Assembly (NCBI GenBank): GCA_017438635.1
Contig: JAFRUZ010000007.1
Location: 18,069 to 82,068, forward strand
Direction: 5' to 3'
DNA: 64,000 bases
Source of the DNA: Bacilli bacterium
GTDB taxonomy: Bacteria; Bacillota_I; Bacilli_A; RF39; UBA660
Within the stretch, counting starts at the first letter, position 1. Each line of letters starts with the position of its first letter. The position numbers and the translations under genes were made by a program. The notes beneath the pieces are model-generated. The model ran no database searches. It was not told where the DNA came from and saw only the letters and a program-made list of their open reading frames with translations. This document shows positions 17,900 to 64,000 of this stretch, one piece after another.

Positions 17900-17991
17900 T
17901 TCATTTTTTTGTGTAAAATCATGTGTTTTTTATTTAAAAAAGTTGTTAAAAAAAACAATATAAGCTATAATTAATATGATAGGGTGATAAA

Positions 17992-20298
17992 ATGGGGAAA
18001 GTTTTAAGTGATACTGAAATAAAAAGAATTAATCGCTACTGGGCTGCAACTAACTATTTATCAATATGTCAAATATATTTAAAGGATAATGTTCTGTTAA
18101 AAAGACCATTAGAGTTTTCTGATGTAAAAAATAAACTTATAGGACATTGGGGAACTGCTCCAGGACAAAACTTTATCTATGCCCATTTGAATAGAATAAT
18201 AAAAGATTTTAATATTGATATGATATATATATCAGGACCTGGTCATGGTGGACAAGCTATGATTGCTAATTCTTATCTTGAAGAGGTGTATACAAGAGTA
18301 TATCCTGAAATAACTCAAGATGAAGAAGGACTTACTAAACTTTGCAAACAATTTAGTTATCCAGGAGGAGTATCTTCCCATGTGGCGCCAGATGTTCCTG
18401 GTTCAATAAATGAAGGTGGAGAATTAGGATACAGTTTAGCCCATGCTTACGGTGCTGTTCTCGATAATCCAAATCTGATTGCCGCTTGTGTTATTGGAGA
18501 TGGTGAAGCTGAAACCGGCCCACTTTCTGCATCATGGAATATTAACAAAATTATCAATCCTAAAACTGATGGAGTTGTACTTCCAATCATTCACTTAAAT
18601 GGCTATAAAATAGCTAATCCTACTGTTTTAGGTAGAATGCCTGATAAAGATATTAAAGCATTGTTCAAGAGTCTTGGATACAAACCATACATAGTATCAG
18701 GAAGTGAACCTCGTGCTATGCATGAAGCAATGTCCGTTGCTCTAGAAAAAGTATGCTTTGATATAAATAAACTAAAAAATGGAAAGACAAAACTATTTCC
18801 AATGATAGTACTTAGGACTCCAAAAGGATGGGGATGTCCTAAAAAAGTAAACGACAAAAAGATTGAAGGTTCTTTCAGGGCTCATCAAGTACCATTTACA
18901 GTTGAGACAGAAGAAGATTTAAAGCTTCTTGAAAAATGGTTAAGAAGTTATTCACCAGAAAAACTTTTTGATGAAAAAGGAACACTTCTTCCTGATATTA
19001 GAAAAGTACTACCAAAATATGAAAAGAGAATGAGCGCTAGTAAATACGCTAACGGTGGATTGTTGCTAGAAGAATTAAAAACACCAGATTTCAGAAAATA
19101 CAAAATAGATGTAGAACCTGGTGTAACAAAGGCAAGTGCCATGGGTGTTTTAGGAACTTATATTAGAGATTTAATAAAAGAAAACAACAACTTTAGAATC
19201 TTTGGGCCAGATGAACTAGCCTCTAATCGTCTTAACAAAGTTTTTGAAGTTACCAATAGAAAATGGAATTATAACATAAAAAAAGATGATGAGTATCTTT
19301 CTGAAGACGGAGCAGTTATAGATTCAATTCTTTCTGAACATGTGTGTGAAGGATTACTCGAAGGGTATTTGTTAACAGGAAGACATGGTTTCATGCATTC
19401 ATATGAAGCATTTATAAGAATAATTGATTCAATGACTAGTCAACACGCTAAATGGCTAAAAGTATGCAAGGATATTCCATGGAGAGCAGATATAGCATCC
19501 CTAAATTATGTTCTAAGTTCTCATATATGGCAACAAGATCATAATGGATTCACTCATCAAGATCCAGGATTTCTTAATCATGTTGCCACTAAAAAAACAG
19601 CTATTTCTAGAATTTATTTACCTATAGATAGCAATACATTATTATCAACATTTCATCACTGTATAAAGACAAAAAACTATATTAACGTCATAGTTGCTTC
19701 GAAACACGAAAGACCAGAATGGCTTAATATGGACGAAGCCATAGAACACTGTACTAATGGTATCGGAGAATTAAAGTTTATAAGTGATAAATGTAATGAT
19801 CCTGATTTAGTATTAGTATCAGCAGGGGATACACCAACAATTGAAATAGTGGCAGCTAAAAAAATCATAAGTCAATTTTTAAATATCAAAGTAAGAGTAA
19901 TAAATGTAATAGATTTAATGAGACTGCAATCAGACTCAGTGCATCCACATGGTATGTCAGATAAAGAATATGATGCACTATTTACTAAAAATAAACCAAT
20001 TATATTTGCCTTCCATGGTTATCCAACACTTATTCATATGCTAACTTATAAGAGAAAGAATAAGAACATCCATGTTCATGGATACAAAGAAGAAGGTACA
20101 ATCACAACTCCATTTGATATGAGAGTTCAAAACGAAATAGATAGATACCACATAATACTAAATGCTTTAAAATATGTGGAAATATCAAAAAAAGAGAGAA
20201 AGGCAATAACTGATTATTGCAATTCTCAATTAGAAAAACATTACAATTATATAAGAGAAAACGGTCAAGATATGCCAGATGTTAATGAATTAAAATAA
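17992..20298 (+). CDS. xfp: xylulose-5-phosphate/fructose-6-phosphate phosphoketolase
   Basis: GHWGTAPG, EGGELGYS, GDGEAETG and the 768-aa length are phosphoketolase signatures. Confidence 0.92.
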   Translation: MGKVLSDTEIKRINRYWAATNYLSICQIYLKDNVLLKRPLEFSDVKNKLIGHWGTAPGQNFIYAHLNRIIKDFNIDMIYISGPGHGGQAMIANSYLEEVYTRVYPEITQDEEGLTKLCKQFSYPGGVSSHVAPDVPGSINEGGELGYSLAHAYGAVLDNPNLIAACVIGDGEAETGPLSASWNINKIINPKTDGVVLPIIHLNGYKIANPTVLGRMPDKDIKALFKSLGYKPYIVSGSEPRAMHEAMSVALEKVCFDINKLKNGKTKLFPMIVLRTPKGWGCPKKVNDKKIEGSFRAHQVPFTVETEEDLKLLEKWLRSYSPEKLFDEKGTLLPDIRKVLPKYEKRMSASKYANGGLLLEELKTPDFRKYKIDVEPGVTKASAMGVLGTYIRDLIKENNNFRIFGPDELASNRLNKVFEVTNRKWNYNIKKDDEYLSEDGAVIDSILSEHVCEGLLEGYLLTGRHGFMHSYEAFIRIIDSMTSQHAKWLKVCKDIPWRADIASLNYVLSSHIWQQDHNGFTHQDPGFLNHVATKKTAISRIYLPIDSNTLLSTFHHCIKTKNYINVIVASKHERPEWLNMDEAIEHCTNGIGELKFISDKCNDPDLVLVSAGDTPTIEIVAAKKIISQFLNIKVRVINVIDLMRLQSDSVHPHGMSDKEYDALFTKNKPIIFAFHGYPTLIHMLTYKRKNKNIHVHGYKEEGTITTPFDMRVQNEIDRYHIILNALKYVEISKKERKAITDYCNSQLEKHYNYIRENGQDMPDVNELK

Positions 20299-31260: not shown

Positions 31261-33321
31261 TTATTCTCCAGTTTCAGGTTCAGGATCTGGATCAGGTGTA
31301 GGTTCTGTTTTTTCTACACAACTTGTTCCGTTGTCCTCTTTGCCTTCAGGACAGACACAATTGCCACTTCCATCGTCAACATATCCTGCATCAGTTTTAT
31401 CACATGTTTTAGTTGGCTCAGGTTCTGGAGTAGGCTCAGGCTCTGGAGTTGGTTCTGGTTCACTAGAGACAGCCTTTGCAACTGTTAATGTTATTGATCC
31501 TGATATTAAATCTAATCTCTTATTTTCAGGATAACTTTGATCCATTACTTGACCTGCAGGTACCTCACTAGTTTCTTTATAAACTACATTAACACCAATT
31601 CCATGACTTGATAACCAACTTCTTGCATAACTTTCACTAGAACCTACGAAATTAGGAAGTAAACTATATGAAGTACCACCACCATATACATCTGCTCCAA
31701 TTACTTTTTGTTCAAATGGCTTTTCAATATTAAATTCCATCTTTTTAACTATTGTAACTTCTTCAAGTCCTAAGTTTTGTTTCATTGTACTAACAATAGT
31801 ATTTAAACTAGCTCTATCTGGTATATAATTATACAAAGTTAATCCTATACCTTCATCATATATCATAGCACTAGAACCACTTAAATATAATTGAGTCATA
31901 TTAATTAAGTTACTTGAACTATGACTTGTTTTTATTAATCCTTTAGCAATGTTATAAAAAGATAACATTTGTTTTGTAGTAAAATTAGTATCCATACTCA
32001 TACTTACAGTATCAAGTATAGTTAATAACTGACTAGCACTTCTTATACTCTTAATTTTATTAAGTATTCCTTGTACTACAAGTTGTTGATTAACACCTCT
32101 TTGAAGGTCACCAGTAAGAAGTGTTTTTCTATGTCTTGCAAGTGCTAATGCTTGTTCACCATTTAATTTTTGTTTTCCTTTTTTAAGACATATTAAGTTT
32201 TCTGATTTTGTAGATCTCTTAGAATTAGATTCACAGAATTCTATAGGAACATCTACTTCAATTCCTCCCAAGGCATTTACTAAACTTATTACACCTTGAA
32301 AATTAACTTTTACGTAATAATCAATATTAATTCCTGTAAAGTTTTCAATTGTCTTTATCATACAAGATTCACCATTCCATGCTGCATGAGTTATTTTGTT
32401 TTCTCTTTGACCTGCAAAACATGCAATAGGCACATATGTATCTCTAGGAATACTAAGTATTGTAGCATTAAGTGTCTTTGGATTAAATGTTACTAACATT
32501 AATGAATCTCCATTACCTGTAGCATTCTTAGATAATTCTTTTTGTGTAGAATCAATACCCATAACGAGTAGGGTAAATGGTTTATCTATTTTATCTGATG
32601 TATTGAAATTTAAAATATCATCACCAGTATATTTACTAGCTTCTTCTTTTGTTAAAGTCTTTGATTTTTCAATTACTATTTTAGTATCTTCTTCTATGTT
32701 TTTATACTTATCAATACTTTTAAACATACTAGGATAGTTTTTACTAATCATTATAGCATCTACTTTTTTATTATATAAGTCTTTAACTAAAGATGTTACA
32801 TTTGAATATTCTTTTATATTATCTTCAAGGCCATTATCTTTAGCAATTTCCATTCCTATGACATATCCATCAATAGATGTCTCATCAATAACTATACCAA
32901 TCTTTTTCTTTTTTAAATCTTCTACTTTTTCAACTTTTGAATCTTTCATTACTAATACTGCTGTAGTATAAGTTATCTTATCTTTATTCATATTATCTAA
33001 AGAAGAATATGATTTATATATAAAGTATCCTGCAAAAGACTGAACAGCAATCATAATAATTGATAATATAATTGTAATAATTATTCCAATCTTTTTCTTT
33101 TTCTTAAAAAATCTTCTAACTACAAACACGAGAGCAATATTTAATAATAAAATTACTCCCATAGCAATGTATCTTAATTTATCTTCAACGCCACTTATTT
33201 TATATAAACAAAATACTAGAAAAGCACCAGAAGCAATAGTTATTAAATTAAGTAGTGTAATAGCAATCCTTTTAACTATTGAAGGTTTCTTAGGCTTTTC
33301 TAAAACTATATTTTCATTCAT
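31261..33321 (-). CDS. LytR-CpsA-Psr (LCP) family protein with extra N-terminal extracytoplasmic domain, C-terminal PASTA domain and Pro/Glu-Cys-rich tail
   Basis: The LCP core is LLVMGIDS...GDSLMLVTFNP...SIPRDTYV. The PASTA-like segment is LPNFVGSSESYARSWLSSHGIGVNVVYKE...GSITLTV. The tail has EPEPTPEPEPTPEPEPT and 5 Cys. RBS is AAGGAGG. Confidence 0.8.
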   Translation of the reverse strand: MNENIVLEKPKKPSIVKRIAITLLNLITIASGAFLVFCLYKISGVEDKLRYIAMGVILLLNIALVFVVRRFFKKKKKIGIIITIILSIIMIAVQSFAGYFIYKSYSSLDNMNKDKITYTTAVLVMKDSKVEKVEDLKKKKIGIVIDETSIDGYVIGMEIAKDNGLEDNIKEYSNVTSLVKDLYNKKVDAIMISKNYPSMFKSIDKYKNIEEDTKIVIEKSKTLTKEEASKYTGDDILNFNTSDKIDKPFTLLVMGIDSTQKELSKNATGNGDSLMLVTFNPKTLNATILSIPRDTYVPIACFAGQRENKITHAAWNGESCMIKTIENFTGINIDYYVKVNFQGVISLVNALGGIEVDVPIEFCESNSKRSTKSENLICLKKGKQKLNGEQALALARHRKTLLTGDLQRGVNQQLVVQGILNKIKSIRSASQLLTILDTVSMSMDTNFTTKQMLSFYNIAKGLIKTSHSSSNLINMTQLYLSGSSAMIYDEGIGLTLYNYIPDRASLNTIVSTMKQNLGLEEVTIVKKMEFNIEKPFEQKVIGADVYGGGTSYSLLPNFVGSSESYARSWLSSHGIGVNVVYKETSEVPAGQVMDQSYPENKRLDLISGSITLTVAKAVSSEPEPTPEPEPTPEPEPTKTCDKTDAGYVDDGSGNCVCPEGKEDNGTSCVEKTEPTPDPDPEPETGE

Positions 33322-33420: not shown

Positions 33421-36309
33421 TTACGGTGTCGTTTCAGGAGGTGTTTCAGGTTCGTCATTACCCTCAACATATACCTTTGTTGTGGCAGTAGATGATTCTC
33501 CGTCATATTTTACTTTATATGTAATTGTATAAGTTCCAGGTTTACTAAAATCAGTACAACCATCTGGTCCAGAAACACTATGAGTAATTGTAGCAGATGC
33601 TGTAACATCAACACCGTTTTCATAAACTGTAAATGGATGTGAATCAATAGGTGCTGGATCTCCAACTGCTATAGTGATTTCAGAATCAACGTTACTCTTA
33701 ATACTTATTCTTTGACTTAAACTCTTACTAATTCCTGAACTCATATTGCTTGTAGTATTTTTATAAGCAGTTTTAACTGTATATGTACCAAATGGACTAG
33801 CCCCTGAATATGTATAACTTGTACCTGTTGTAAATCCTAAAAGTTTTCCATTTAAATATACGTTATATCCAAATGCTCCAAATGATTTATCGCTTTCTTT
33901 AGGTTTAGCAGCTGCTCCCCAAGATAAACGAACAGAGCCAGAACTATAACTCAAACGTAAATTTGATGGATTTGGTAAAGTATCATATTTTTTAGTTACA
34001 GTCTTAGGAGTATGACCTCTTCTGAACAATTCTGTAATAATCATACTGCTTGGAGTAGCGGCACTAGGTAATTGTTCAGTACCTTTAACAACTTTTACTG
34101 ATACAACACTTGATGGTTTTGTCCATCTAGAACCATTATTATCAAACAATGCCTTACTACAAGAAGAGAATAAATAATTTCTGTGATTAAACATTTGAGA
34201 CATTGTCAAATATCTACCATATTTATTTTCAACATATCCAGTCCACATTGCTATAACTGTGTCTGGTGTATAACCTACAATCCAACCATCTGGAGCAGCA
34301 TCACTAGAGTATCCCCAACGATAAGCTGTTTGAGTATCATAATTTGTAGTACCTGTCTTCATAGCATATTGACTATTAGTATAAACTGAAATTCCATTGT
34401 GAGATGCTACACCTTTTAATACATCAGTAACCATATAAGCAGTAGCGTCACTCATAGCTCTTTCACCTTCAGGTTTAAATTCTATCTTTTCATTTGAATT
34501 TCTTAAAATAATTTTGCTAACAGTATATGGTTCATAATAAGTACCACCGTTACTAAATGCTGTATATGCGCCAGCCATTTGAAGTGGAGATGCACCATTA
34601 AATGCTCCAAGTGCATGAGCTTGATGTAAATATGGATAATCAGTTTTCGAAGAATTCTTCTTATTAACACATTTTTTAGAAGAAGTATCGTATTCATATC
34701 CACTTGCACACAATTCAGGTTTAATACCTAAACCAGTAGCAAAATCAATTTTTTTCTGCATATCTACAGATTGAAAAGCAAGTACTGCAGGAACATTTCT
34801 TGAATCCATAAGTGAATATCTAAGTGTAATGTTTCCTCTGTACGCTCCATCGTAGTTAACTATTCTTTGACTAGTTCCTGAATAGTATATAGGATGGTCA
34901 TTAAATATATGTGCAGTAGAATAGTAGTTATACTCAATAGCAGGACCATAATCAAATATTGGTTTTGCAGTTGATCCTATTTGTCTTGATATATCAGTTG
35001 CATAGTTAAATGTTCTTTCACCTGTTCTATTTCTACCAGCACCAACTGCTAGTATTTTACCAGTGTGACTATCTACTGCAATAGCAGCACCTTGTATTGA
35101 ACTATTAACCCAAGTATGAGTTTTTCCACTGAACACTTTTTCAATAGCTTGTTGTCTTTTAGGATCTAGGTTTGTAAATACTTCCATAGGTACAGCATAT
35201 GGATCCATACCTGTTTTATTAATTAATTCTTGTATTACCAAGTCTATATATCCTTGATATTTATTAGTAGTTGAGTTACCATCTTTAGCAAGTAATCTTT
35301 TTACAGGAATAGCTTCTGCTATTTCTTTCTCTTCTTCTGTTATATAACCATGTCTTACCATAAGTGATAAAACTGTAGAACGTCTTTGAGTAGCAGCTTC
35401 AGAATCTAAATAAGGATCATAAGCACCAGGTGCTTGGAATAGACCAGCAATAAGAGCTGCTTCTGATAAGTTCATTTGCTTAGCATGTTTACCAAAATAT
35501 GTTTGTGCTGCTTGTTCAACACCGTATGAATTACTACCTAAGAAAGGTTCATTTACATAGAATTCTATTATTTCTTGCTTTGTAAATGCTCTTTCTATTT
35601 TAAATATTGATAGATATATATCAGTAAACTTTCTTATTATACCTTGAATACCTTCAGCTTCACGAGAAGTAAAATTATTTTTAGCAACTTGCATTGTAAG
35701 AGTAGATCCACCACCTGCATCAGAAGCTCCTGCAAGTTGACCTATAACAGCTTTAATAAATCTTGGAGCATCTACACCGTTATGTTGGAAGAATCTAGAA
35801 TCTTCAGTAGCAACTATTGCATCTACTAAAACGTTAGGAAGTTCATCATATTCAAGCTTTTCTCTTTTTTCAGTACCAAGAGTAGCTACAATGTTCTTTT
35901 TACTATCATATACAATAGTAGTTTCGTTTCTCTCTAATTTAGTAGTATCAAACTCTGGTGCTGATAGTATAACTGCAGTAAAGAAAGCAATAAATGCTAA
36001 AACTCCAAGTATACCCATAAGTAATATAAATAAGAATCCTGCTTTAGCGCGTCTTCTTTTTTTACTTCCTACTGGATATCTATCTATTACTTGTACGAGT
36101 AGCACTAGTAATAGATAAAGAACAGTAAATGGTACAGCAACCAAAGTTCCAAAAACGAAATATCCTACAATTAAGAAGGCTAAAGCAGTTATTCCTATAA
36201 AAGCAAATGTAAACATTGATACTTTTTTAGGTTTCATCATATCAGCTCTTCTTCTCATTTCCTTTTTCTCTTGTTTATTTTTTTTAATTTTTACTTTTCT
36301 TTGTTTCAT
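33421..36309 (-). CDS. ponA: class A penicillin-binding protein (PBP1A-type glycosyltransferase/transpeptidase) with Fn3/Ig-like C-terminal extension
   Basis: GT51 motifs are EDSRFFQHNGVD and GGSTLTMQ. Transpeptidase motifs are STAKP, SRN and KTGT. The ATG overlaps the recU TGA (ATGA at 36306-36309). Confidence 0.9.
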   Translation of the reverse strand: MKQRKVKIKKNKQEKKEMRRRADMMKPKKVSMFTFAFIGITALAFLIVGYFVFGTLVAVPFTVLYLLLVLLVQVIDRYPVGSKKRRRAKAGFLFILLMGILGVLAFIAFFTAVILSAPEFDTTKLERNETTIVYDSKKNIVATLGTEKREKLEYDELPNVLVDAIVATEDSRFFQHNGVDAPRFIKAVIGQLAGASDAGGGSTLTMQVAKNNFTSREAEGIQGIIRKFTDIYLSIFKIERAFTKQEIIEFYVNEPFLGSNSYGVEQAAQTYFGKHAKQMNLSEAALIAGLFQAPGAYDPYLDSEAATQRRSTVLSLMVRHGYITEEEKEIAEAIPVKRLLAKDGNSTTNKYQGYIDLVIQELINKTGMDPYAVPMEVFTNLDPKRQQAIEKVFSGKTHTWVNSSIQGAAIAVDSHTGKILAVGAGRNRTGERTFNYATDISRQIGSTAKPIFDYGPAIEYNYYSTAHIFNDHPIYYSGTSQRIVNYDGAYRGNITLRYSLMDSRNVPAVLAFQSVDMQKKIDFATGLGIKPELCASGYEYDTSSKKCVNKKNSSKTDYPYLHQAHALGAFNGASPLQMAGAYTAFSNGGTYYEPYTVSKIILRNSNEKIEFKPEGERAMSDATAYMVTDVLKGVASHNGISVYTNSQYAMKTGTTNYDTQTAYRWGYSSDAAPDGWIVGYTPDTVIAMWTGYVENKYGRYLTMSQMFNHRNYLFSSCSKALFDNNGSRWTKPSSVVSVKVVKGTEQLPSAATPSSMIITELFRRGHTPKTVTKKYDTLPNPSNLRLSYSSGSVRLSWGAAAKPKESDKSFGAFGYNVYLNGKLLGFTTGTSYTYSGASPFGTYTVKTAYKNTTSNMSSGISKSLSQRISIKSNVDSEITIAVGDPAPIDSHPFTVYENGVDVTASATITHSVSGPDGCTDFSKPGTYTITYKVKYDGESSTATTKVYVEGNDEPETPPETTP

Positions 36310-49010: not shown

Positions 49011-50990
49011 ATGACACTAGGAATAGTAGGAAAACAAGCAAAAGATTATACCATAGATATAAAAACTGTTAATAACATCAAATCGTTAGGGCTAGATATG
49101 ATTAACACTGCAAAATCTGGGCATCCAGGAATAGTTCTTGGAGCAGCACCAATAATATATAGGCTATATAATAATCATTTAATATTTGATAATAATAATC
49201 CTAATTGGATAAATAGAGATAGATTCATAATGTCTGCAGGTCATGGATCAGCTCTTTTGTATGCAACTCTATTTATGAGTGGCTTTGATTTAACTATAAA
49301 CGATCTAAAAGAATTTAGAAATTATGGTTCAAAGACACCAGGTCATCCAGAAGTAGGAGTAACTCCTGGAGTTGACTGCTCAACAGGACCATTAGGACAA
49401 GGAATAGCAACTGCAGTTGGTATGGCAATTGGAGAAGCCTATTTAAATCAAAAGTTTAAAAGTCTAAAGGCAAGTTTAATAGATCACTATACATATGTAT
49501 TATGTGGAGATGGTGATCTGATGGAAGGAATATCTTCTGAATCAGCCTCTTTAGCGGGTTCTTTAGGACTAGGAAAAATAATTGTTTTATACGATTCAAA
49601 TGGGATAAGTTTAGATGGTTCAACAACTAATGTATTTGATGAAAATGTGCTAAAAAAATATAGAGCAATGGGTTGGGATACCCATCTACTAAAAGATCCA
49701 TACGATTTTGAAGAATTTGACAATTTGATAGAAAGAGCAAAAAAAGCAGTCGATAGGCCATCAATAATAAAAATAGAAACAGTAATAGGAAAAGATTCGA
49801 AATATCAAAATACAAATACCATTCATGGTAAGCCTTTATCAAAAGAGGACTTAAAGAATATAAAGAAAAAACTAGGAATTAGAGAGATACCTTATACTGT
49901 GTTAAGTGACGCATATAATAACATGAAAAAATGTATTGATGAGAGAAACGATTTAGCAATATCAAAATGGGAAAAAACATGTGAAAAAGTAATGCAAAAA
50001 CTAGATAAAAGTATAATAGAAGATTATGAAAAATTACTTTCCCACGAAGATATTAACATAGAAAGTACACTTGATAATAAACAGTATTCAGGAAGAGAAT
50101 TAGCGCATACTTTATTAAATAAAATACCAAAAAAAGAAACATTTTGTTTACTTACTGATACTAGTAGTTCTACACAAATATTTTTTGATAAAGAAGAAAA
50201 CTTTTCTAAAAAGAACAGACTTGGAAAAAATCTACAATGTGGGGTAAGAGAACTAAGTGCTTCAGCTATTCAAAATGGATTAGCATTAATGAATATCAAA
50301 ACTGTTTCTTCAACTTTCTTAGCATTCTCTAATTATATGATTCCAAGCATCAGAATGGCATCCCTAATGAATTTAAATACCACCTATATATTTACTCATG
50401 ACAGCGTTTTAATTGGAGAAGATGGACCAACTCATCAACCTATAGAACAAATAGATCAGTTAAGACTAATACCTAATCTTACAGTATTTAGGCCATGTGA
50501 TGCTAATGAAATGACTGAAGCATTTAATTACTCATTTAATAGTGATAAACCATGCGCAATAATAGTAAGTAAGGAAGTAATACCAATATCAAAAGAACAT
50601 GGTTATATAATAGAAGAAGAACAAGATTTTGATATATGTCTAATTGCAAGTGGAACAGAAGTAGAATTAGCTATTCAAGTTAGCAAAGCCCTTGAAAAAC
50701 ATATGATTAAATCAAGAGTAATATCAATTCCATCACTAGAATTATTTGATAAAGAAACAAATGAAGAAAAAGAAAAAATACTACCTAAAGACAAGATTAA
50801 GGTAGTACTAGAATTATCAACTTGCAATAGTTATTACAAATATTTATCACAAGATGATTTAGTATTTAACATAAAAGAATTTATGAAAAGTGGAAACAAA
50901 TATTCAATTATTCACAGACTAAACTATGATGTTGATTCTATTACTAAAAATATTGCTTTTCACGTTAAACAAAAAATTTCGGAGCATTAG
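49011..50990 (+). CDS. tkt: transketolase
   Basis: SGHPG, the ThDP motif GDGDLMEG, and EDGPTHQPIE are transketolase motifs. ATG at 49011 follows GGAGTGGTAGG. Confidence 0.9.
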   Translation: MTLGIVGKQAKDYTIDIKTVNNIKSLGLDMINTAKSGHPGIVLGAAPIIYRLYNNHLIFDNNNPNWINRDRFIMSAGHGSALLYATLFMSGFDLTINDLKEFRNYGSKTPGHPEVGVTPGVDCSTGPLGQGIATAVGMAIGEAYLNQKFKSLKASLIDHYTYVLCGDGDLMEGISSESASLAGSLGLGKIIVLYDSNGISLDGSTTNVFDENVLKKYRAMGWDTHLLKDPYDFEEFDNLIERAKKAVDRPSIIKIETVIGKDSKYQNTNTIHGKPLSKEDLKNIKKKLGIREIPYTVLSDAYNNMKKCIDERNDLAISKWEKTCEKVMQKLDKSIIEDYEKLLSHEDINIESTLDNKQYSGRELAHTLLNKIPKKETFCLLTDTSSSTQIFFDKEENFSKKNRLGKNLQCGVRELSASAIQNGLALMNIKTVSSTFLAFSNYMIPSIRMASLMNLNTTYIFTHDSVLIGEDGPTHQPIEQIDQLRLIPNLTVFRPCDANEMTEAFNYSFNSDKPCAIIVSKEVIPISKEHGYIIEEEQDFDICLIASGTEVELAIQVSKALEKHMIKSRVISIPSLELFDKETNEEKEKILPKDKIKVVLELSTCNSYYKYLSQDDLVFNIKEFMKSGNKYSIIHRLNYDVDSITKNIAFHVKQKISEH

Positions 50991-51309
50991 TTTGCTCTTT
51001 TTTTTGCGAAGTTGTCTGCTTTTTGATTTGTTCGTTTTTAGTATTAGAAACTTCACTGCTATTCAAACCTCTAACAACTCTGAGCATAGTTCTAGCATTA
51101 TTCCAAATTGGTTTAATTTGATAAAAAACAGGGATAGCTTGATTAATTACACCTAATGTTTTACTAGTACCATTTAAAATACTTGAAAAAGAAACCTTTG
51201 AAGGCATTTTACCAAATAGAAAATTTGTCCTAGGGACAGGAGCCATATATCTTATATTTCTAGCAAGATAGGGGCTAGGTATAGAATTAAAATTATAACT
51301 ATTATACAT
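50965..51309 (-). CDS. VrrA/YqfQ-like small sporulation-associated protein
   Basis: ATG at 51309 follows GGAGG. FSSILNGTSKTLGVINQAIPVFYQIKPIWNNARTMLRVVRGL resembles the YqfQ pattern (...TQQVLNTAQQIGPMVQQYGPMVKNLPAMWKLYRGL) as I recall it. Confidence 0.4.
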   Translation of the reverse strand: MYNSYNFNSIPSPYLARNIRYMAPVPRTNFLFGKMPSKVSFSSILNGTSKTLGVINQAIPVFYQIKPIWNNARTMLRVVRGLNSSEVSNTKNEQIKKQTTSQKKEQTNAPKFFV

Positions 51310-51376
51310 AGTACAACCTCCTAATATAATGTATGTAAAAATCATAAAAAAGAAACAATTTTTTCACTTTAAGTCA

Positions 51377-51405: not shown

Positions 51406-51432
51406 ATATATATAATAGTGGAGGTGTGTAAC

Positions 51433-52803
51433 ATGGACAATCAAATGCAAGAACAAAACGCTGCTGCAGTAGCAGAACCACAAGCTACAGCAGTACCTGA
51501 ACAACAAGCTACACAAAGCAATGATGCTAATGCAACTCCTTCTACCGATCAAAAGAATAAAGAGGGATTAAAAGCTGCATCTACAATGCAAAATAAAAGA
51601 AAAAGATTTAAGTATAAAATGCAAAATGATAAAGGCAAAATAATTACAGGATTTCTAGATGCTTATAATCAAGCAGAAGTTACATCATACTTAAAAAATG
51701 AAGGTTATAAAGTTTTAAAAATTGAAGAAGTAAATCAGTTTTTAAATATGGAAATTGGTGGGACAAAATTAAATTATGCAGAATTAGCATTTTTATTGAC
51801 TCAATTATCTACATATTTAAAAGCAGGTATTCCTTTAATAGATTCAATAAAAATACTTGAAAGACAAACTCAAAAAGCTTCTAAAAAGAGGGTATATTCT
51901 AATATAGTTTACGAGTTATCAAAAGGTGAAGCATTTTCAGCAAGTTTAAGTGCTCAAGGAAATACTTTTCCACCACTTTTAATAAACATGGTAAAAACTG
52001 CTGAACTTACAGGTGACTTACCAGAAATATTAGATGATATGCGTGATTATTATGAAGCAATAGATAGAACTAGAAAAGAAGCTATCAGTTCAATGATTTA
52101 TCCATCAATTCTATTTATATTTGCTATCGGAGTACTTGTATTTATCTTAACATGGGTTATTCCATCATTCGTTGAATTATTCCAACAACAAAATGCTAAA
52201 CTTCCGACAGTAACAAAAATAGTACTTGGTGCTAGTGATTTCCTTGTTACTAAAAAATATTGGATTATAGGAATTCTTGCAGGAGTAACAATAGCATTTA
52301 TAGTATTGTATAAATATTCAAAACCATTCAGAAAAACAATGCAAACAATTGCAATGAAACTGCCAGGATTTGGAAATATAATTATATATAGAGAAGTAAC
52401 AATGTTTACTAAAACATTTGCTTCACTTTTAAACCACAACGTATTTATAACAGATTCAATGGAAATATTAAGAACTGTATCAAACAATGAAATATTTAAA
52501 GAAATAATAAATGAATCATTATCATTGTTATCAAAGGGGGCTAAAATAAGTGATGCCTTTGAAGATAAATGGGCATTTCCAGTCGTAGCATACGAAATGT
52601 TAGTAACAGGTGAAACAACTGGTCGTCTTCCAATGATGATGAGTTATGTTGCTAACTATTACGGTGATCTGCACGCTAACCTTGTAAAAAGAATAAATAC
52701 ATTTATAGAACCGTTACTAATTATAATGATTGCAATAATTGTTGGTATCGTAGTAGTATCAGTAGTTATGCCAATGTTTGATTTCTATGGAACAGTTTTA
52801 TAA
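51433..52803 (+). CDS. pilC: type IV pilus / type II secretion platform protein (GspF/PilC family)
   Basis: It has two T2SS-F repeats (LSTYLKAGIPL... / FASLLNHNVFI...) and 3 TM segments. It carries an N-terminal extension of about 55 aa rich in Gln/Ala/Thr. Confidence 0.85.
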   Translation: MDNQMQEQNAAAVAEPQATAVPEQQATQSNDANATPSTDQKNKEGLKAASTMQNKRKRFKYKMQNDKGKIITGFLDAYNQAEVTSYLKNEGYKVLKIEEVNQFLNMEIGGTKLNYAELAFLLTQLSTYLKAGIPLIDSIKILERQTQKASKKRVYSNIVYELSKGEAFSASLSAQGNTFPPLLINMVKTAELTGDLPEILDDMRDYYEAIDRTRKEAISSMIYPSILFIFAIGVLVFILTWVIPSFVELFQQQNAKLPTVTKIVLGASDFLVTKKYWIIGILAGVTIAFIVLYKYSKPFRKTMQTIAMKLPGFGNIIIYREVTMFTKTFASLLNHNVFITDSMEILRTVSNNEIFKEIINESLSLLSKGAKISDAFEDKWAFPVVAYEMLVTGETTGRLPMMMSYVANYYGDLHANLVKRINTFIEPLLIIMIAIIVGIVVVSVVMPMFDFYGTVL

Positions 52804-53566
52804 AATATATTTTACAATTGCTTTTCTACTAATAGGATTAATATTTGGTTCGTTTTACAATGTAGTGGGGTTGAGAGTATCAAAAAAAGAAAACTTATTA
52901 TTTCCAGGAAGTCATTGTCCTAAATGTAATCATAAGTTAAAACCATATGAACTTATTCCAGTATTTTCATTTATCTTTTTAAAAGGAAGATGTAAAAAAT
53001 GTAAAGAAAGAATAAGTATAATGTACCCGTTTATAGAATTATGTACTGGTATACTATTTGCAGTTAGTTTTTATAAATATGGATTTAGTACAGATCTTAT
53101 ATTAGCCTTACTGTTATCATCATTATTAATGATAATAGTAGTTACTGACCTAAACTTTTATATAATTCCCGACAGTATAATAGTAGCCTTTGGTATATTA
53201 ATATTTATATATAATATAATCGATAAAGGAATACTTGATGCGTGTACTTATGTAGTTTATGGATTACTTATGTTTGGACTAATGTATGCCTTAATGAAAT
53301 TTGGTAATGCTCTTTTTAAAAAAGAATCTTTAGGAGGAGGAGATATAAAATTAATGGGAATACTTGGAATGATTAATAAGCCAATAGTTTCCATTACAGC
53401 TCTATCCCTTGCAGCATTTATAGCATTACCATGTTCAATATATTTTCTAAAAAAGAACAAAGACAAAGTGATTCCATTTGGACCATTTATAGTAATTGGA
53501 TTCATACTTATAATGTTCTTAGGAATAGATACAAACGATATAATAAAGTTTTTAACAAGAGCTTAG
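52787..53566 (+). CDS. pilD: prepilin peptidase (A24 family)
   Basis: It has the CPKCNHKL...CKKCKERI zinc motif, catalytic Asp residues in IIPD and GGGDIKLMG, and multiple TM segments. The start is uncertain (TTG 52778 or ATG 52787). Confidence 0.88.
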   Translation: MEQFYKIYFTIAFLLIGLIFGSFYNVVGLRVSKKENLLFPGSHCPKCNHKLKPYELIPVFSFIFLKGRCKKCKERISIMYPFIELCTGILFAVSFYKYGFSTDLILALLLSSLLMIIVVTDLNFYIIPDSIIVAFGILIFIYNIIDKGILDACTYVVYGLLMFGLMYALMKFGNALFKKESLGGGDIKLMGILGMINKPIVSITALSLAAFIALPCSIYFLKKNKDKVIPFGPFIVIGFILIMFLGIDTNDIIKFLTRA

Positions 53567-53577
53567 GCTCTTTTTTT
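53557..53577. terminator. hairpin terminator between convergent pilD and cse60
   Basis: The hairpin AAGAGC-TTAG-GCTCTT is followed by TTTTT. Confidence 0.5.
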
Positions 53578-53752
53578 ATGTATAAATAATCATTGCACTA
53601 AAGCAATATATTTGTTCTTCAGAAAAAACAGAAACACTAACTTCATACTTAATATCTATTATTTCTTTATCTTCATCCAACTCTTCCAAGAAGGCATTTA
53701 TACTTTCTTCTAGATCTTTTTCATGCGCTTCATCAAATATTTTTACTCTCAT
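53576..53752 (-). CDS. cse60: sporulation protein Cse60 (58 aa; below the ORF-track length cutoff)
   Basis: Hand translation gives MRVKIFDEAHEKDLEESINAFLEELDEDKEIIDIKYEVSVSVFSEEQIYCFSAMIIYT. The pattern (VK.FDE.HEKDLE..N.FL...IIDI.Y.V......EQIYCFSA.I.Y) matches Cse60/YteV as I recall it. RBS is GGTGA. Confidence 0.6.
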   Translation of the reverse strand: MRVKIFDEAHEKDLEESINAFLEELDEDKEIIDIKYEVSVSVFSEEQIYCFSAMIIYT

Positions 53753-53866
53753 ATTTTCACCAGATTAATTTTATAAAAAAAATATAAAAAAAATTGTAGA
53801 ATAATCTTGATAAATTATTTAAATCTACTATAATAATGTGTTAAGTTTTTTGACGAGGAGGAGATT

Positions 53867-56218: not shown

Positions 56219-56319
56219 CTTGCTTTTTTATTAAAAAATAGTTTGTTTGCTTTTAATGACGTTAATTTAGTGATATAATAAAAAACATATTTTATTTAAT
56301 TAGGATGTGAAAACTCACT

Positions 56320-56588
56320 ATGAAAGAAATCAGTTTATATATAGATGAATCAGGAAACCTTGGAACAGGTATGGGAAGATATTTTTTAATTTGCGCATTA
56401 GAAGTTGATTCTAAAATAAAGTCAAGCATTATAAAAAGATCTGGAAGGGTTATTTAATACAATGGGCAGATATAATAGCAAATTCATTATATAAAAAATA
56501 TAATAGTAATGAAGAATCATACTATAAAAAAATAAAGCCTTATATTGTTTTCGAAAGCAAATTTCCATCAAGAGAATTCGGAAAGTAA
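56320..56588 (+). pseudogene. decayed DUF3800-like gene (N-terminal 45 codons plus out-of-frame C-terminal remnant)
   Basis: 56320-56457 encodes MKEISLYIDESGNLG...FLICALEV, then a stop. A second frame from about 56458 reads ...YLIQWADIIANSLYKKY.... IYIDESGN and Q.ADIIA are the two conserved ends of DUF3800 as I recall. The total of about 270 nt compares with an expected 600-750 nt. Confidence 0.45.
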
Positions 56589-56596
56589 GATAATAA

Positions 56597-56625
56597 TTGA
56601 CATATAATATAAAAAATGATAATAT
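56597..56625 (+). promoter_or_regulatory. sigma-A-like promoter candidate immediately upstream of the inverted-repeat element
   Basis: TTGACA (56597-56602), a 17-nt spacer, then TAATAT (56620-56625). Confidence 0.35.
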
Positions 56626-56628
56626 AAC

Positions 56629-56736
56629 TATATCAAAAGAACTGGTATATAAGCCTTGTGTAACTTATTCAAGTTATTGAATATAAGAGTTATATTTTAA
56701 CTCAGTTATACAAGCTCTGCCAGTTCTTTTGATATA
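56629..56736 (+). repeat. 108-nt nested inverted-repeat / branched-hairpin element (candidate cis-regulatory RNA leader)
   Basis: The outer arms are a perfect 17 nt: TATATCAAAAGAACTGG (56629-56645) pairing with CCAGTTCTTTTGATATA (56720-56736). An inner 11-bp helix pairs 56655-56665 with 56704-56714. Two internal hairpins lie at 56666-56683 and 56687-56703. Confidence 0.6.
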
Positions 56737-56801
56737 AATATTAAACAATTGTATTTTACAAGTTTTTGTGTTAAAATTAGTAAGAACTTTGGAGTGATAT
56801 T

Positions 56802-59856: not shown

Positions 59857-59892
59857 AAAAACCGGTATGTTAGTTAATTCATACCGGTTTGT
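59857..59892. terminator. bidirectional terminator between convergent priA and the pilus ATPase gene
   Basis: The hairpin AAACCGGTATG-(10 nt)-CATACCGGTTT has an 11-bp stem. The stop codon of the ATPase gene lies in the loop. Confidence 0.65.
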
Positions 59893-61433
59893 CCGTTTGC
59901 ATTTATATTTTGATTTATCATATCTACTAAATTATTAGTGTAATTATTAGTATTAACATTAGATTGTGCTGGTGCACTAGGACTAGTTTGTGCTGGTGCA
60001 CTAGGACTAGTTTGTGCAGGTTGTGTATTGTTAGAAGTCAAAGAATTAAATACATTATCATCAAATAAGTTTTGACTATTTGTATTATAAGCTTGTTCAT
60101 TTTGAACAGGCTCAATTATTTTATTTTCAGGAGCAACTGTTTTATTATTTGGAACAGGTACTACATTTTGAGCTTCTTTTGCTTGATTTGCATTACTAGT
60201 ATTATCAGTATTATCTCTTACATATTGTTCTGATATATCATCGTAATCATCATCATCTACTAAACGGAATACTTCTTTTAAATCAGTTATTCCTTCCATA
60301 ACTTTTATAAGTCCATCTTGTAATAGATTTCTAACATTCTTATTCTTAGTATAGATTAATTTTTTTAATTCTTCACGATCAATATTTCTATTTATAGCAT
60401 CACGTATTTCTTCATTAATCATTAATACTTCTTGTAGTGCAATTCTTCCTGTATAACCATTGTGACAATGTTCACATCTGCCTGCTTCATATATTGTTTC
60501 AATATCAACATTTAAAGCTTTCTTAAACAGTGTTTTTTCAGTTTCGTTAGCAGGCCTTTGAACTCTACAATAAGGACATAATCTCTTAGCAAGAGTTTGA
60601 GAAATGATACCTTTCAAAGATGAAGAAAGCAAATATCTTTCAACATCCATATCTACAAGTCTTTCAATAGTAGTAAGAGAGTTGTTAGTATGCAGTGTAG
60701 ATAAAACTAAGTGCCCTGTAATAGAAGCACGAACAGCTATTTTTGCAGTTTCGCTATCACGAATTTCTCCGATAAGAATTATATTCGGGTCTTGTCTTAG
60801 TATTGAACGAAGAACAGCAGCAAAGTCTAGCCCAATTTCAGAATTAACTTGTACTTGGTTTAATCCTTCAATACTCATTTCTACGGGGTCTTCAACTGTG
60901 ATTATATTAACTTCTTCACGGTTTAACCTTTGAAGCATTGAATAAACAGTAGTAGACTTACCAGAACCAGTAGCACCAGTTATTAAAATGATACCATTCG
61001 GTAAAGCAAGCATATCCATAATAGTCTTGTAGTTTTCACCAGTAAATCCTAAAGTTTCAATACCTTGTAAACTCATTGAATAGTCTAGAATTCTTATAAC
61101 GATTTTTTCTCCGAAACTTGCAGGCAACGCAGAAACACGTAAATCAAGATCTTTACCTTCAATGACACTTTTTATAGCACCATCTTGAGGAAGACGAGAT
61201 TCCGTTATGTTCATACCTGCAAGAAGTTTAATTCTTGTAGTTAAATTTCTTTTATATTTATTATCAACGATGGTATAATCTCTAAGTTCACCATCGATTC
61301 TTATTCTAACTTTTAAATAATTTTCAGCAGGGTCAAAGTGAATATCACTTGCATTCTTGATTACAGAATCAATTATAATCTCGTTAACAATGTTAACAAT
61401 AGGTGTAGTTGTAAAATCAAACTCTTTCATCAT
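59874..61433 (-). CDS. pilB: type IV filament assembly ATPase (GspE/PilB/ComGA family), short N-terminus, long low-complexity C-terminal tail
   Basis: It has the Walker A GATGSGKST, the Asp box, the Walker B ILIGEIRD, the His box LSTLHTN and the tetracysteine CPYC...CEHC. The protein starts directly at the N2 domain (ASDIHFDP). Confidence 0.88.
   Translation of the reverse strand: MMKEFDFTTTPIVNIVNEIIIDSVIKNASDIHFDPAENYLKVRIRIDGELRDYTIVDNKYKRNLTTRIKLLAGMNITESRLPQDGAIKSVIEGKDLDLRVSALPASFGEKIVIRILDYSMSLQGIETLGFTGENYKTIMDMLALPNGIILITGATGSGKSTTVYSMLQRLNREEVNIITVEDPVEMSIEGLNQVQVNSEIGLDFAAVLRSILRQDPNIILIGEIRDSETAKIAVRASITGHLVLSTLHTNNSLTTIERLVDMDVERYLLSSSLKGIISQTLAKRLCPYCRVQRPANETEKTLFKKALNVDIETIYEAGRCEHCHNGYTGRIALQEVLMINEEIRDAINRNIDREELKKLIYTKNKNVRNLLQDGLIKVMEGITDLKEVFRLVDDDDYDDISEQYVRDNTDNTSNANQAKEAQNVVPVPNNKTVAPENKIIEPVQNEQAYNTNSQNLFDDNVFNSLTSNNTQPAQTSPSAPAQTSPSAPAQSNVNTNNYTNNLVDMINQNINANGQTGMN
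59967..60014. repeat. perfect 24-nt tandem duplication inside the ATPase C-terminal tail
   Basis: TGCTGGTGCACTAGGACTAGTTTG occurs twice (59967-59990 and 59991-60014). It encodes AQTSPSAP twice on the minus strand. Confidence 0.9.
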
Positions 61434-61538
61434 AATGAATTGCCCCTTCTTATTATTTTTTTAATAAACTACTAGCATTTATTCTTAAATTATTATATAA
61501 TAGATTTTGAAAATAAGCAAGTGGGAGGATTATAATTT

Positions 61539-63512
61539 ATGAAAAAAAATAACAAAAATCTAAACACAAAAGGGTTTGTAATGTCCGAACTTTTAGCGGC
61601 TTCGATAGTAATTCTTTTGCTATTCTCAATTTTATTTGCTAATTATTTACCCCTAACAGGCGAATTTGAAACAAGAATAGCATACAACAACGTAACAGCA
61701 AACTATGGAGCCTTCTATGTAAGAAAAGTATATAAAACAGTTTTAGAAGATTCTACTGCCAAAGCAACTCTTGATCAAGGTCTAGTAGACAAAGGTTATT
61801 ATACTGTTTATACTTCAACAAAACCTAATGAAATTAAACTTGCAACAAATTATGAAGACGATTTGGCTAATATAATAGAAAAGTATCAAATCGAGGAAAT
61901 AATAATAACTAAGTACAAAACAGATGAGGTAAAAGGTCGAGGAACAAACTTGGACAAACGTTATACAAGGTCTTCTGGAGTGCTATACAGTTATATAAAA
62001 TATTTGCCTTATTATACACTATCAATGTATGATGGGAAAAGTTCTGAACCGTATAGATTGATTATGAAAACAGGTTATGGATATGCCACAACTCAAATAT
62101 TACCTGACCCTCCGACACCTATAAGTTGCTTTGATTTAAAGTATATCAAAGAGGGAGAGTTTACTGTAACTAATTATCACGAAGAATGTGGTGAAAATGT
62201 TACTATAACTGCTAATGAGATTACTGTTGGAATGGGCTCAGAAGCAAGACATGGTGTCATAACATCTATCACTGGTACAGCTAATAACAAAGGTGCCTTT
62301 GAAGGTAAAGGAATAAAAACTATAAACCTATCTCAAAGGATTACAGATATTGGTAAAAATGCCTTTAAAAATAATTTTATTAATAAATTTAGTTTTGAAA
62401 ATAATGCTCCAGGAGTTACTAGTATTGGAGATTATGCATTTAGTGATAACAAATTTACTAGAATAACTATACCAGGAACTATAACCACAATAGGTGAAGG
62501 AGCTTTTGCTAATAATTATAATTTACAAGTAATAGAATTTGACTTCGAACATGCTACTAATCCAATTAACATAATATCTAAAAATATGTTTTCACTATCA
62601 GAATATGGAAGTATGAATTCAAATAATTTGATCAGTTTATTTATACCTGCTAACATACAAACAATTAAAGAAAATGCCTTCCGTAATTTACAATTCTCAT
62701 CTATTGAATTTGAAAACAATATAGAAACTAATGAAGATGAAGGAGAAGAAGTCGAAATATCAGATCCAAGTCAATTAGAAACAATAGAAGCAAATGCTTT
62801 CAGAATTGACGAACAAGCACCAATATCACCTACTAATTACATACAGTTATCTTTACCAAACAGGATTGAAACAATAGGGGCAGGTGCCTTCCAAAATGTA
62901 AAACTAGGTAGATTGATATTCCAAGTTGATGACTCATCATATTCTGCTTTAAAAACTATAGGAGCAAATGCTTTTAATGTATATGAAACAAATATAGCTA
63001 ATATAAACACTGAAGATTTTTGTGATACCGTACCTGGAGAAGAAGGACAACCAGCTACTTGTGAATATAAAAGAAATCTAAAAATTCCAACTAGTGTCAC
63101 AAGAATAAATGCCAATGCCTTTAAGAATCAAGAATTAGAGGCAATTGTGTTCGATAACATAAATGATCAAGGGATTGTTGTAACTAATAGTAAACTAACC
63201 CATATAGAAGATGGCGCTTTCAGTGGCAACAAACTAGAAACTATTACTATACCACCAAGTCTTGCGGTATCAGATGCAACTGTCGGTAAACAAATATTTG
63301 GTTCATCATATACTCTTGGTAACAATAGTGGAGAAATAATAATTCAAAACCCAGATATGTTTAACAAATCCTGGTGGTGTGATGCACTTTTTGGATCAAC
63401 TTGTACAGTAGAAAGAGTAGATGAAGAAGGTGTTAATGATTATAAATATACACATAATTCAACGACTAAATATATAAGCTATCAGGGAGAAGAAGAAGGG
63501 GAAGGAGAGTAA
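61539..63512 (+). CDS. modular type IV pilin-like protein with BspA-type leucine-rich-repeat (LRR_5-like) domain
   Basis: The N-terminus MKKNNKNLNTKG/FVMSELLAASIVILLLFSILF has Gly-1, Glu+5 and a hydrophobic helix. From about residue 230 there are at least 8 repeats of the form I(P)..(I/V)..IG..AF....L..I.F. RBS is GGGAGGA. Confidence 0.7.
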   Translation: MKKNNKNLNTKGFVMSELLAASIVILLLFSILFANYLPLTGEFETRIAYNNVTANYGAFYVRKVYKTVLEDSTAKATLDQGLVDKGYYTVYTSTKPNEIKLATNYEDDLANIIEKYQIEEIIITKYKTDEVKGRGTNLDKRYTRSSGVLYSYIKYLPYYTLSMYDGKSSEPYRLIMKTGYGYATTQILPDPPTPISCFDLKYIKEGEFTVTNYHEECGENVTITANEITVGMGSEARHGVITSITGTANNKGAFEGKGIKTINLSQRITDIGKNAFKNNFINKFSFENNAPGVTSIGDYAFSDNKFTRITIPGTITTIGEGAFANNYNLQVIEFDFEHATNPINIISKNMFSLSEYGSMNSNNLISLFIPANIQTIKENAFRNLQFSSIEFENNIETNEDEGEEVEISDPSQLETIEANAFRIDEQAPISPTNYIQLSLPNRIETIGAGAFQNVKLGRLIFQVDDSSYSALKTIGANAFNVYETNIANINTEDFCDTVPGEEGQPATCEYKRNLKIPTSVTRINANAFKNQELEAIVFDNINDQGIVVTNSKLTHIEDGAFSGNKLETITIPPSLAVSDATVGKQIFGSSYTLGNNSGEIIIQNPDMFNKSWWCDALFGSTCTVERVDEEGVNDYKYTHNSTTKYISYQGEEEGEGE

Positions 63513-63515
63513 GTT

Positions 63516-64000
63516 ATGAATAATAAAGGTATGACTTTAGTAGAATTACTTATTACTTTTTCACTTTTAATGATAATAGTAGTAGGCATGTTTAATCTTA
63601 TTTTGGATGTAAAAATGGATTTAGATGATAAGCAAATTGGTAAAGACATAAGTGAATATTCGAACTTTTTAAATAGTGATATACATTATGAATTAATAAC
63701 TAGAAGACCTATTGCTATTGCCATAAAAACAACACCTAGTGGTAATTGGAATATAAAATACAATACAATTTATGATAATGATGAAGATTGTGGAACAGAA
63801 GAAAATCCTATTCCATGTGGTATAAATGGTGATAACTTTAGAGTTGATTCAACATATAAAGATGGTACAAAAACTGTAACTATAACAGGAACAAAAAATA
63901 TTGCTAATGTTTGTAGCAATTTCTTCCCATGTGCAGTTTATACATATTACGATTCACAAGCTGTAAACAATCAAGGACAAGCATCTGCAATATTCAAAGT
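63516..64000 (+). CDS. prepilin-type N-terminal cleavage/methylation domain protein (minor pilin/pseudopilin), 3' end outside window
   Basis: MNNKG/MTLVELLITFSLLMIIVVGMF is a canonical class III signal. The gene starts 3 nt after the LRR-pilin stop. It is not in the ORF track because it runs off the window. Confidence 0.7.
   Translation, partial: MNNKGMTLVELLITFSLLMIIVVGMFNLILDVKMDLDDKQIGKDISEYSNFLNSDIHYELITRRPIAIAIKTTPSGNWNIKYNTIYDNDEDCGTEENPIPCGINGDNFRVDSTYKDGTKTVTITGTKNIANVCSNFFPCAVYTYYDSQAVNNQGQASAIFK

Follow-up and report, generated by a model that had tools for sequence, protein, structure and literature searches.

The locus described here raises the question of whether a protein that begins like a type IV prepilin and continues as a BspA-type leucine-rich repeat (LRR) domain is built into a filament, from which it would present the repeats as an adhesin. 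The protein has 657 residues and is encoded near the end of a 64,000-nucleotide stretch of DNA from a Bacilli bacterium (GenBank assembly GCA_017438635.1, contig JAFRUZ010000007.1, positions 18,069 to 82,068 of the forward strand), which we refer to as the window and whose GC content is 27.7%. A first-pass annotation, made from the letters of the window and a list of its open reading frames (ORFs), had proposed a pilin N-terminus fused to an LRR domain at the head of a pilin operon. Our analysis makes it probable that the protein is a modular minor type IV pilin, processed by the prepilin peptidase PilD and displaying an LRR adhesin. The features of the gene to which the following sections refer are:

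61539..63512, forward strand: whole gene for a 657-residue modular pilin-like protein, carrier plus BspA-type LRR (ORF list, homologues, AlphaFold2)
61523..61529, forward strand: Shine-Dalgarno sequence GGGAGGA, 9 nt before the ATG (read directly from the sequence)
61539..61574, forward strand: leader MKKNNKNLNTKG, residues 1-12, basic, ending in Gly-1, the predicted PilD cleavage site (direct reading, family conservation)
61575..61640, forward strand: predicted α1N, residues 13-34, with Phe+1, Glu+5 and a 22-residue hydrophobic tract (direct reading, Glu17 conservation, hhalign)
61575..62102, forward strand: carrier (pilin-like) module, residues 13-188, a long N-terminal helix and a four-stranded α/β head (AlphaFold2, family profile)
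62103..62120, forward strand: proline-rich linker PDPPTP, residues 189-194 (direct reading)
62127..63488, forward strand: BspA-type LRR module, residues 197-650, with N-cap, 10-12 repeats and C-terminal β-cap (PF13306, Foldseek, repeat cores)

The class III signal and the carrier module

The N-terminus of the protein is organized as a class III signal. The leader MKKNNKNLNTKG, 12 residues long and with a net charge of +4, ends in a glycine at position -1 and is followed by the tract FVMSELLAASIVILLLFSILFA, in which a phenylalanine occupies position +1 and a glutamate at +5 (Glu17) is the sole charge in 22 hydrophobic residues past the cleavage site. Gly-1 and Glu+5 had already been picked out in the first-pass annotation, and their conservation bears this out. 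A database search returned about 36 near-full-length homologues with the same architecture, at 30-99% identity. In an alignment of 28 full-length homologues, Glu+5 is invariant (28/28, at identities down to 33%) and position -1 is a glycine in 25, an alanine in two and missing in one, owing to a truncated gene call. The best-conserved part of this alignment is formed by the first ~65 residues, comprising the signal and α1, and the mean column identity is 53% in the N-terminal module against 30% over the whole protein.

The same motif recurs in a much wider family. A profile of the carrier module, searched against 1.84 billion representative proteins, retrieved 453 representative clusters at E≤1e-3, with 250 at E≤1e-10. 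In a sample of 150 carrier representatives with pairwise identities of at most 50%, the class III motif is present in 142, and in seven of the other eight the gene call is truncated. Position -1 is a glycine in 133 of the representatives and an alanine in 9, position +1 a phenylalanine in 140 and a tyrosine in 2, and Glu+5 is found in 142; the median leader length across these 142 is 9 residues.

The carrier also occurs by itself. Among the best 150 clusters, 65 proteins of at most 250 residues span the profile in full and terminate at the point that corresponds to the module boundary of the window protein, and many stand-alone carriers are pilin-sized, with 165-230 residues. Other carrier-bearing proteins have 270-1183 residues and varied C-terminal modules, the types of cargo being LRR_5, Flg_new (Listeria-Bacteroides repeats), ALK_LTK_GRD together with F5/8C, DUF6273 and domains that Pfam does not recognize. 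As judged from these alignments, the carrier is an autonomous unit. Nearly all stand-alone carriers tested against NCBIfam (46 of 50) weakly match the model of the minor pilin ComGD, over α1 only and with a best E-value of 2.6e-5, below the 70-bit cut-off; the 657-residue protein itself has no match to any ComG model of this database.

An AlphaFold2 model of residues 1-196, built from a 24-sequence alignment, reached a predicted local distance difference test score (pLDDT) of 81.9 and a predicted template modelling score of 0.70. The N-terminal helix of the model spans residues 8-69 and is thus about 60 residues long, and the head consists of strands at 87-92, 118-125, 172-178 and 182-187 with interspersed helices. 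The model supports an α1 helix and, as predicted, the carrier would have the general 'lollipop' layout of pilins.

A second pilin gene, pilin-2, follows the gene for the 657-residue protein, and hhalign places the signal of the carrier in register with the signal of this canonical pilin. The alignment between the carrier and the pilin-2 family is restricted to the signal and α1N (E=0.013), so that the two are not detectably paralogous beyond α1N. Scanning all six frames of the window with the motif turned up these two pilin genes and no other class III N-terminus.

The LRR module and the two-pilin cassette

Between the carrier and the repeats lies the PDPPTP linker that had been noted at the outset, together with the pilin-sized module preceding it, and its residues D190, T193 and P194 are nearly invariant in the homologue alignment. 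The repeats that follow are matched by LRR_5 (PF13306) in four stretches (E=3.6e-34, 117.8 bits against a cut-off of 27.7). Where the first-pass annotation had counted at least eight repeats of BspA/LRR_5 type, we recognize ten clear cores of the form xxIxxxAF, between residues 268 and 561, and two degenerate ones at the ends. The module contains cysteine pairs at 197/217 in the N-cap, at 495/508 and at 614/622 in the C-terminal β-cap.

The AlphaFold2 model of the full-length protein has a pLDDT of 83.7. Its best Foldseek matches are a protein of Bacteroides ovatus (4fs7, E=1.9e-8) and the pneumococcal surface protein PcpA (4cp6, 3.6e-8), with further matches of the LRR module to 4h09, 4gt6 and TpLRR (6mlx) and E-values in the range from 1.9e-8 to 1e-4. 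By its Pfam score, which lies above the gathering score, and by its matching solenoid fold, the module is of BspA type. The number of repeats is variable among homologues and the LRR module is far less conserved than the carrier, which fits a surface-exposed binding module.

The machinery by which such a protein could be processed and assembled is encoded in the same window:

63516..64000, forward strand: second pilin gene (pilin-2), MNNKG/MTLVELL..., cut by the end of the window (N_methyl, full gene in L021)
59874..61433, reverse strand: PilB/GspE-type assembly ATPase of 519 residues, divergent, with a low-complexity C-terminal tail (T2SSE, E=3e-120)
51418..52803, forward strand: PilC/GspF-type platform protein (T2SSF, E=1.2e-48, two stretches)
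52778/52787..53566, forward strand: prepilin peptidase of PilD/ComC type, with an N-terminal zinc-finger/methyltransferase-associated domain (A24_N_bact, Peptidase_A24)

Pilin-2 is matched by N_methyl (E=1.7e-5, 24.6 bits against a cut-off of 21.2), in keeping with its earlier description as a canonical pseudopilin, and weakly matches ComGE (16.9 bits against 49), ComGD and ComGF over α1. The ATPase contains the Walker A motif GATGSGKST and the motif CPYC...CEHC; its NCBIfam scores for GspE (470 bits), PilB (449) and ComGA (260, with a cut-off of 300) are all below the cut-offs. The platform protein obtained 279 bits for GspF and 137 for ComGB (cut-off 240), and the peptidase, with CPKC...CKKC and GGGDIK in its translation, matches A24_N_bact at E=2.6e-34 and Peptidase_A24 at E=2.3e-11. 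The pilC and pilD genes lie 8-10 kb upstream of the gene for the 657-residue protein. The divergent PilB-type ATPase and the peptidase at 52787-53566 thus agree with what the first-pass annotation had named, and with the platform protein they make up the set of peptidase, ATPase and platform that is looked for in type IV pilins.

To place this arrangement in context, we drew on 21 related loci, with about 20 kb inspected per genome. The nearest relatives are gut metagenome-assembled genomes (MAGs) that go by the names uncultured Tenericutes, Bacilli or Mycoplasma sp.; the labels Lachnospiraceae and Bacteroidaceae on two related contigs probably reflect mis-binning. In strain L021, which is 99% identical, pilin-2 has 246 residues and is immediately followed by a convergent gene of the Gate family, so that the pilin operon consists of two genes, as it does in every relative examined. 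The proposal that our gene is the first of a pilin operon therefore holds in that pilin-2 lies downstream, but the operon comprises these two genes and not many.

Most loci share the layout pilB(-), pilin-1(+), pilin-2(+), pilin-1 being the gene in the position of the 657-residue protein. In L017 and L018, it is pilB that separates the two pilin genes. Every locus examined has both a second pilin gene and the ATPase gene, adjacent except in this latter arrangement. The cargo varies within the cassette: in L016 (610-3475), pilin-1 is a bare protein of 169 residues and pilin-2 a protein of 776 residues with ALK/LTK-type glycine-rich and discoidin-like cargo, showing that either member of the pair can bear the cargo. 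Neither pilin of L019, a distant relative, carries any; they have 189 and 190 residues.

Upstream of the 657-residue ORF, the Shine-Dalgarno sequence is strong. A promoter scan of the divergent intergenic region had its best match at 61507-61536, which we disregard because it includes the Shine-Dalgarno sequence, stopping 3 nt short of the ATG, and because the number of matches equals the shuffled expectation; a terminator was not found in this region.

Several neighbouring features deserve mention. About 125 C-terminal residues of the ATPase (59874-60250, reverse strand) form a low-complexity tail enriched in Asn, Gln, Pro, Ser and Thr, in which TSPSAPAQ is repeated in tandem; its length varies, as the homologues in related loci have 496-566 residues. 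Low complexity is also seen in the platform protein, whose two T2SSF domains are preceded by an N-terminal extension of ~60 residues (51418-51600, forward strand) with a high content of Gln, Ala and Thr (AVAEPQATAVPEQQATQ...). Small ORFs flank pilC and pilD at 50965-51345 and ~53570-53760 (both on the reverse strand), and their syntenic counterparts are called YqfQ-like (weakly) and Spore_Cse60, which hints at sporulation-related genes in a lineage that includes MAGs labelled Tenericutes or Mycoplasma.

Farther away, at 12451-20298, ordinary housekeeping functions are represented by an AddAB/RexAB-like nuclease-helicase pair (PDDEXK_1, UvrD-type helicase) and, behind it, a phosphoketolase (XFP). 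An intergenic gap of about 580 bp in the window (56219-56801), shorter than its counterpart, is without a DUF3800 ORF, unlike the corresponding region of strain L021 (4309-5300), in which a DUF3800 gene for 225 residues lies between lon and the gene for an ArsP_2 permease; this suggests a strain-level insertion or deletion.

Competing readings of the locus

If the 657-residue protein is a modular minor pilin, its prepilin would enter the membrane via the hydrophobic N-terminus, and the PilD-type peptidase (52787-53566) would cleave it after Gly12, probably methylating Phe13. Together with the PilC platform (51418-52803), the PilB-type ATPase (59874-61433) would then extract the mature protein by its α1 helix and build it into either a short pseudopilus or a type IV filament, probably jointly with pilin-2 and as a low-abundance or tip-located unit. 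On its PDPPTP linker, the BspA-type solenoid would be held off the cell and displayed on the filament, where it may bind a host, mucus or microbial ligand. A unit of the 657-residue protein and pilin-2 would parallel the PilA-PilC tip complex of Streptococcus sanguinis (PMC9934059) and the tip complex of the Com pilus (PMC12153270).

Some of our results weigh against this reading. The Pfam model N_methyl (PF07963/IPR012902), a match to which had been suggested as a check by the first-pass annotation, does not match the 657-residue protein even at E≤1. In the family it matches 4 of 24 N-termini, weakly and with a best E-value of 0.036, and one member (P0165) obtains 19.1 bits against the cut-off of 21.2. 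A Foldseek search of the N-terminal model against the PDB found no similar pilin or other structure (best E-value 1.8), so that a canonical pilin fold of the carrier is not demonstrated beyond the α1 helix; of the pilin fold that the first-pass annotation had suggested looking for, the model supports the long α1 helix, while the α/β head has no match to solved pilins. Sequence-profile searches of the PDB with the carrier module gave no match, and neither did those with pilin-2; in the profile search with stand-alone carriers, the sole and marginal match was to the N-terminus of Geopilin (E=0.05). Lastly, a major (small) pilin, PilM/N/O and PilT were not found in the 64-kb window.

By its sequence, the carrier is a member of a large, unannotated and divergent family of pilin-like proteins, which goes undetected by the standard signature.

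The alternative that survives best, which we consider unlikely but by no means negligible, is that the 657-residue protein is processed by PilD and reaches the surface without a long pilus. It would either be anchored in the membrane by its α1N or form, with pilin-2, a short pseudopilus that pushes the LRR module through the wall in the manner of a type II secretion system or Com system; the type IV machinery would then be a display or secretion device and not a pilus. This would agree with the minimal gene set of ATPase, platform, peptidase and two pilins, as well as with the absence of PilM/N/O, PilT and a major pilin both from the window and, bar one small pilin in L019, from the flanks of the 21 related loci. 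The partial scores of ATPase and platform against ComGA and ComGB point in the same direction, as does the weak likeness of relatives to ComGD, ComGE and ComGF. There is also a cell wall to be crossed, since the host encodes peptidoglycan enzymes: a class A penicillin-binding protein (33421-36309), a LytR-CpsA-Psr protein with PASTA domains (31261-33321) and MurT.

Against this stands the fact that the inspected ~20 kb per genome leave room for a major pilin elsewhere. The distant relative L019 provides a case in point, as it encodes a canonical pilin of 131 residues (2263-2658, MNNKG/FTLVEVLAVVAILG...) between uvrC and mutL, 5 kb from the cassette of pilB and two pilins, which by its sequence is a candidate for the major pilin; a counterpart was not found in the 64-kb window. 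Moreover, several of the related genomes also encode giant canonical N_methyl proteins, which suggests a real filament. They are found in L003 (18871-22034, more than 1050 residues with at least four MBG_2 repeats), in L007 (1301-3010, 569 residues) and in L017 (15107-17497, 796 residues), and have GFTL[VI]E prepilin N-termini, so these bacteria seem, from their genes, to have several giant PilD substrates. Sequence alone cannot separate the display of the LRR module without a long pilus from its display by a modular minor pilin, and we favor the latter.

That the protein starts with an ordinary Sec signal-anchor or transmembrane segment, which would make it a type II membrane-anchored LRR adhesin with no relation to the type IV machinery, encoded next to pilB by coincidence, is very improbable in our view. 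The negative result with N_methyl and the lack of a fold match to solved pilins would be compatible with it, as would the fact that BspA-type LRR proteins are usually anchored by other means. Yet a plain transmembrane anchor would not need or keep a class III motif, and here the glutamate at +5 within the hydrophobic segment, Gly or Ala at -1 and the aromatic residue at +1, mostly Phe, are kept in 142 of 150 divergent representatives. Further, the carrier is strictly linked to a PilB-type ATPase and a canonical N_methyl pilin in every locus examined, it exists as stand-alone proteins of pilin size, and hhalign registers its signal with that of the neighboring pilin.

Least probable, if by a narrow step, is that the 657-residue protein is the main structural subunit and filaments consist largely of 70-kDa LRR-bearing subunits: the very strong conservation of α1 and the lack of any pilin besides pilin-2 in the window could be cited for it, but packing a 450-residue solenoid onto each subunit is sterically implausible, repeat number and cargo vary among relatives where a shaft subunit should be constrained, the same position in relatives is taken by a bare protein of 169-189 residues, and known modular pilins are minor subunits (PMC8179133).

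Relation to known systems and significance

Modular pilins were defined by Raynaud et al. 2021, who surveyed InterPro for them (PMC8179133). The protein described here follows this design, with a carrier (residues 13-188), a short linker (PDPPTP, 189-194) and, in LRR_5 (197-650), a domain that is not specific to type IV pili. The combination itself is already catalogued and not new, contrary to the first-pass annotation, which had been aware of no LRR module described in this way: in Dataset S1 of the survey, IPR012902-IPR026906 is the seventh commonest modular-pilin architecture, with 18 proteins and six more with two LRR_5 domains (PMC8179133). IPR026906 is the database entry for the LRR_5/BspA domain, which Raynaud et al. 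2021 place among the domains of 'no clear function' without studying it (PMC8179133). In searching the literature, we came across no experimental work on an LRR pilin.

Canonical N_methyl + LRR_5 proteins were also returned by our homologue search (P0040, P0049, P0056). Like the window protein, such catalogued proteins have a prepilin N-terminus followed by a BspA-type LRR module, with the same CF...ITxY...C N-cap, and P0056 likewise has a second N_methyl pilin gene downstream (L020). They differ in their canonical GFTL[IV]EL N-termini and in pilin modules that are unrelated in sequence to the window carrier. As BLASTP aligns P0056 with the window protein over little more than the LRR module, the fusions look independent.

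Modular pilins of the same design have been established experimentally in S. sanguinis, where PilB combines a pilin with a von Willebrand factor A (vWA) module and PilC a pilin with a lectin module (PMC8179133, PMC9934059); PilA stabilizes PilC, and their complex has been modelled at the pilus tip (PMC9934059). Like these two pilins, our protein comes from a monoderm host and has a class III signal ahead of a pilin module, to which a bulky binding module is connected by a short linker; it also has a non-modular partner pilin encoded adjacently and a predicted role in adhesion. Its cargo, in contrast, is a BspA-type LRR solenoid and not a vWA or lectin module, and its carrier is larger (~175 residues), negative for IPR012902/PF07963 and without a Foldseek match to solved pilins. 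Unlike in the S. sanguinis system, major pilins and PilT are not encoded nearby.

With BspA/PcpA-type LRR surface proteins (PF13306; 4fs7, 4cp6, 4h09, 4gt6, 6mlx) the module shares repeat type and fold. These proteins are extracellular, occur in gut and oral bacteria, and several have been described as adhesins. Their anchoring usually relies on choline-binding, lipoprotein, LPXTG or secretion-system-specific C-terminal domains. None of those with solved structures has been described as a pilin or pilus protein, whereas in our case the LRR module is joined to a pilin-like N-terminal module.

The Com pilus resembles the system of the window in its monoderm host, its minimal machinery of ATPase, platform and peptidase, and the weak ComGD-type matches over α1. 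It differs in having four minor pilins against two here, in a comGC gene, which the operon in the window lacks, and in a comGA-GG operon as opposed to scattered genes. Membership in the Com pilus (type IVd pilus, T4dP) was rejected on account of this scattering and of scores under the curated cut-offs (ComGA 260 against 300, ComGB 137 against 240, ComGE for pilin-2 16.9 against 49).

The locus does not reveal a new kind of system. What is new is the divergent carrier, which the signature misses and which has no relative in the PDB by Foldseek, and the conserved cassette of two pilins with cargo on either partner. Modular pilins are the current explanation for many functions of simple type IV filaments, and vWA and lectin modules alone have been studied experimentally. 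To these the locus adds a clean and conserved example with a BspA-type LRR module, from a domain class implicated in the adhesion of gut and oral microbes and in a little-known, uncultured gut clade. Surveys based on IPR012902 miss the whole carrier family, comprising at least 453 representative clusters. The natural series formed by bare carriers, carriers with varied cargo and cargo on either partner could be used for testing how modular pilins are assembled and positioned.

A broader reading, which we offer tentatively and for which the balance falls just short of even, is a plug-and-play one. According to it, uncultured low-GC gut Bacilli would possess a large, unannotated family of carrier pilins, invisible to N_methyl and with a head unlike that of solved pilins, and would use a cassette of two pilins and an ATPase to display interchangeable binding modules on either partner. 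If this is true, these gut symbionts with reduced genomes would present their adhesins mainly by way of type IV filaments.

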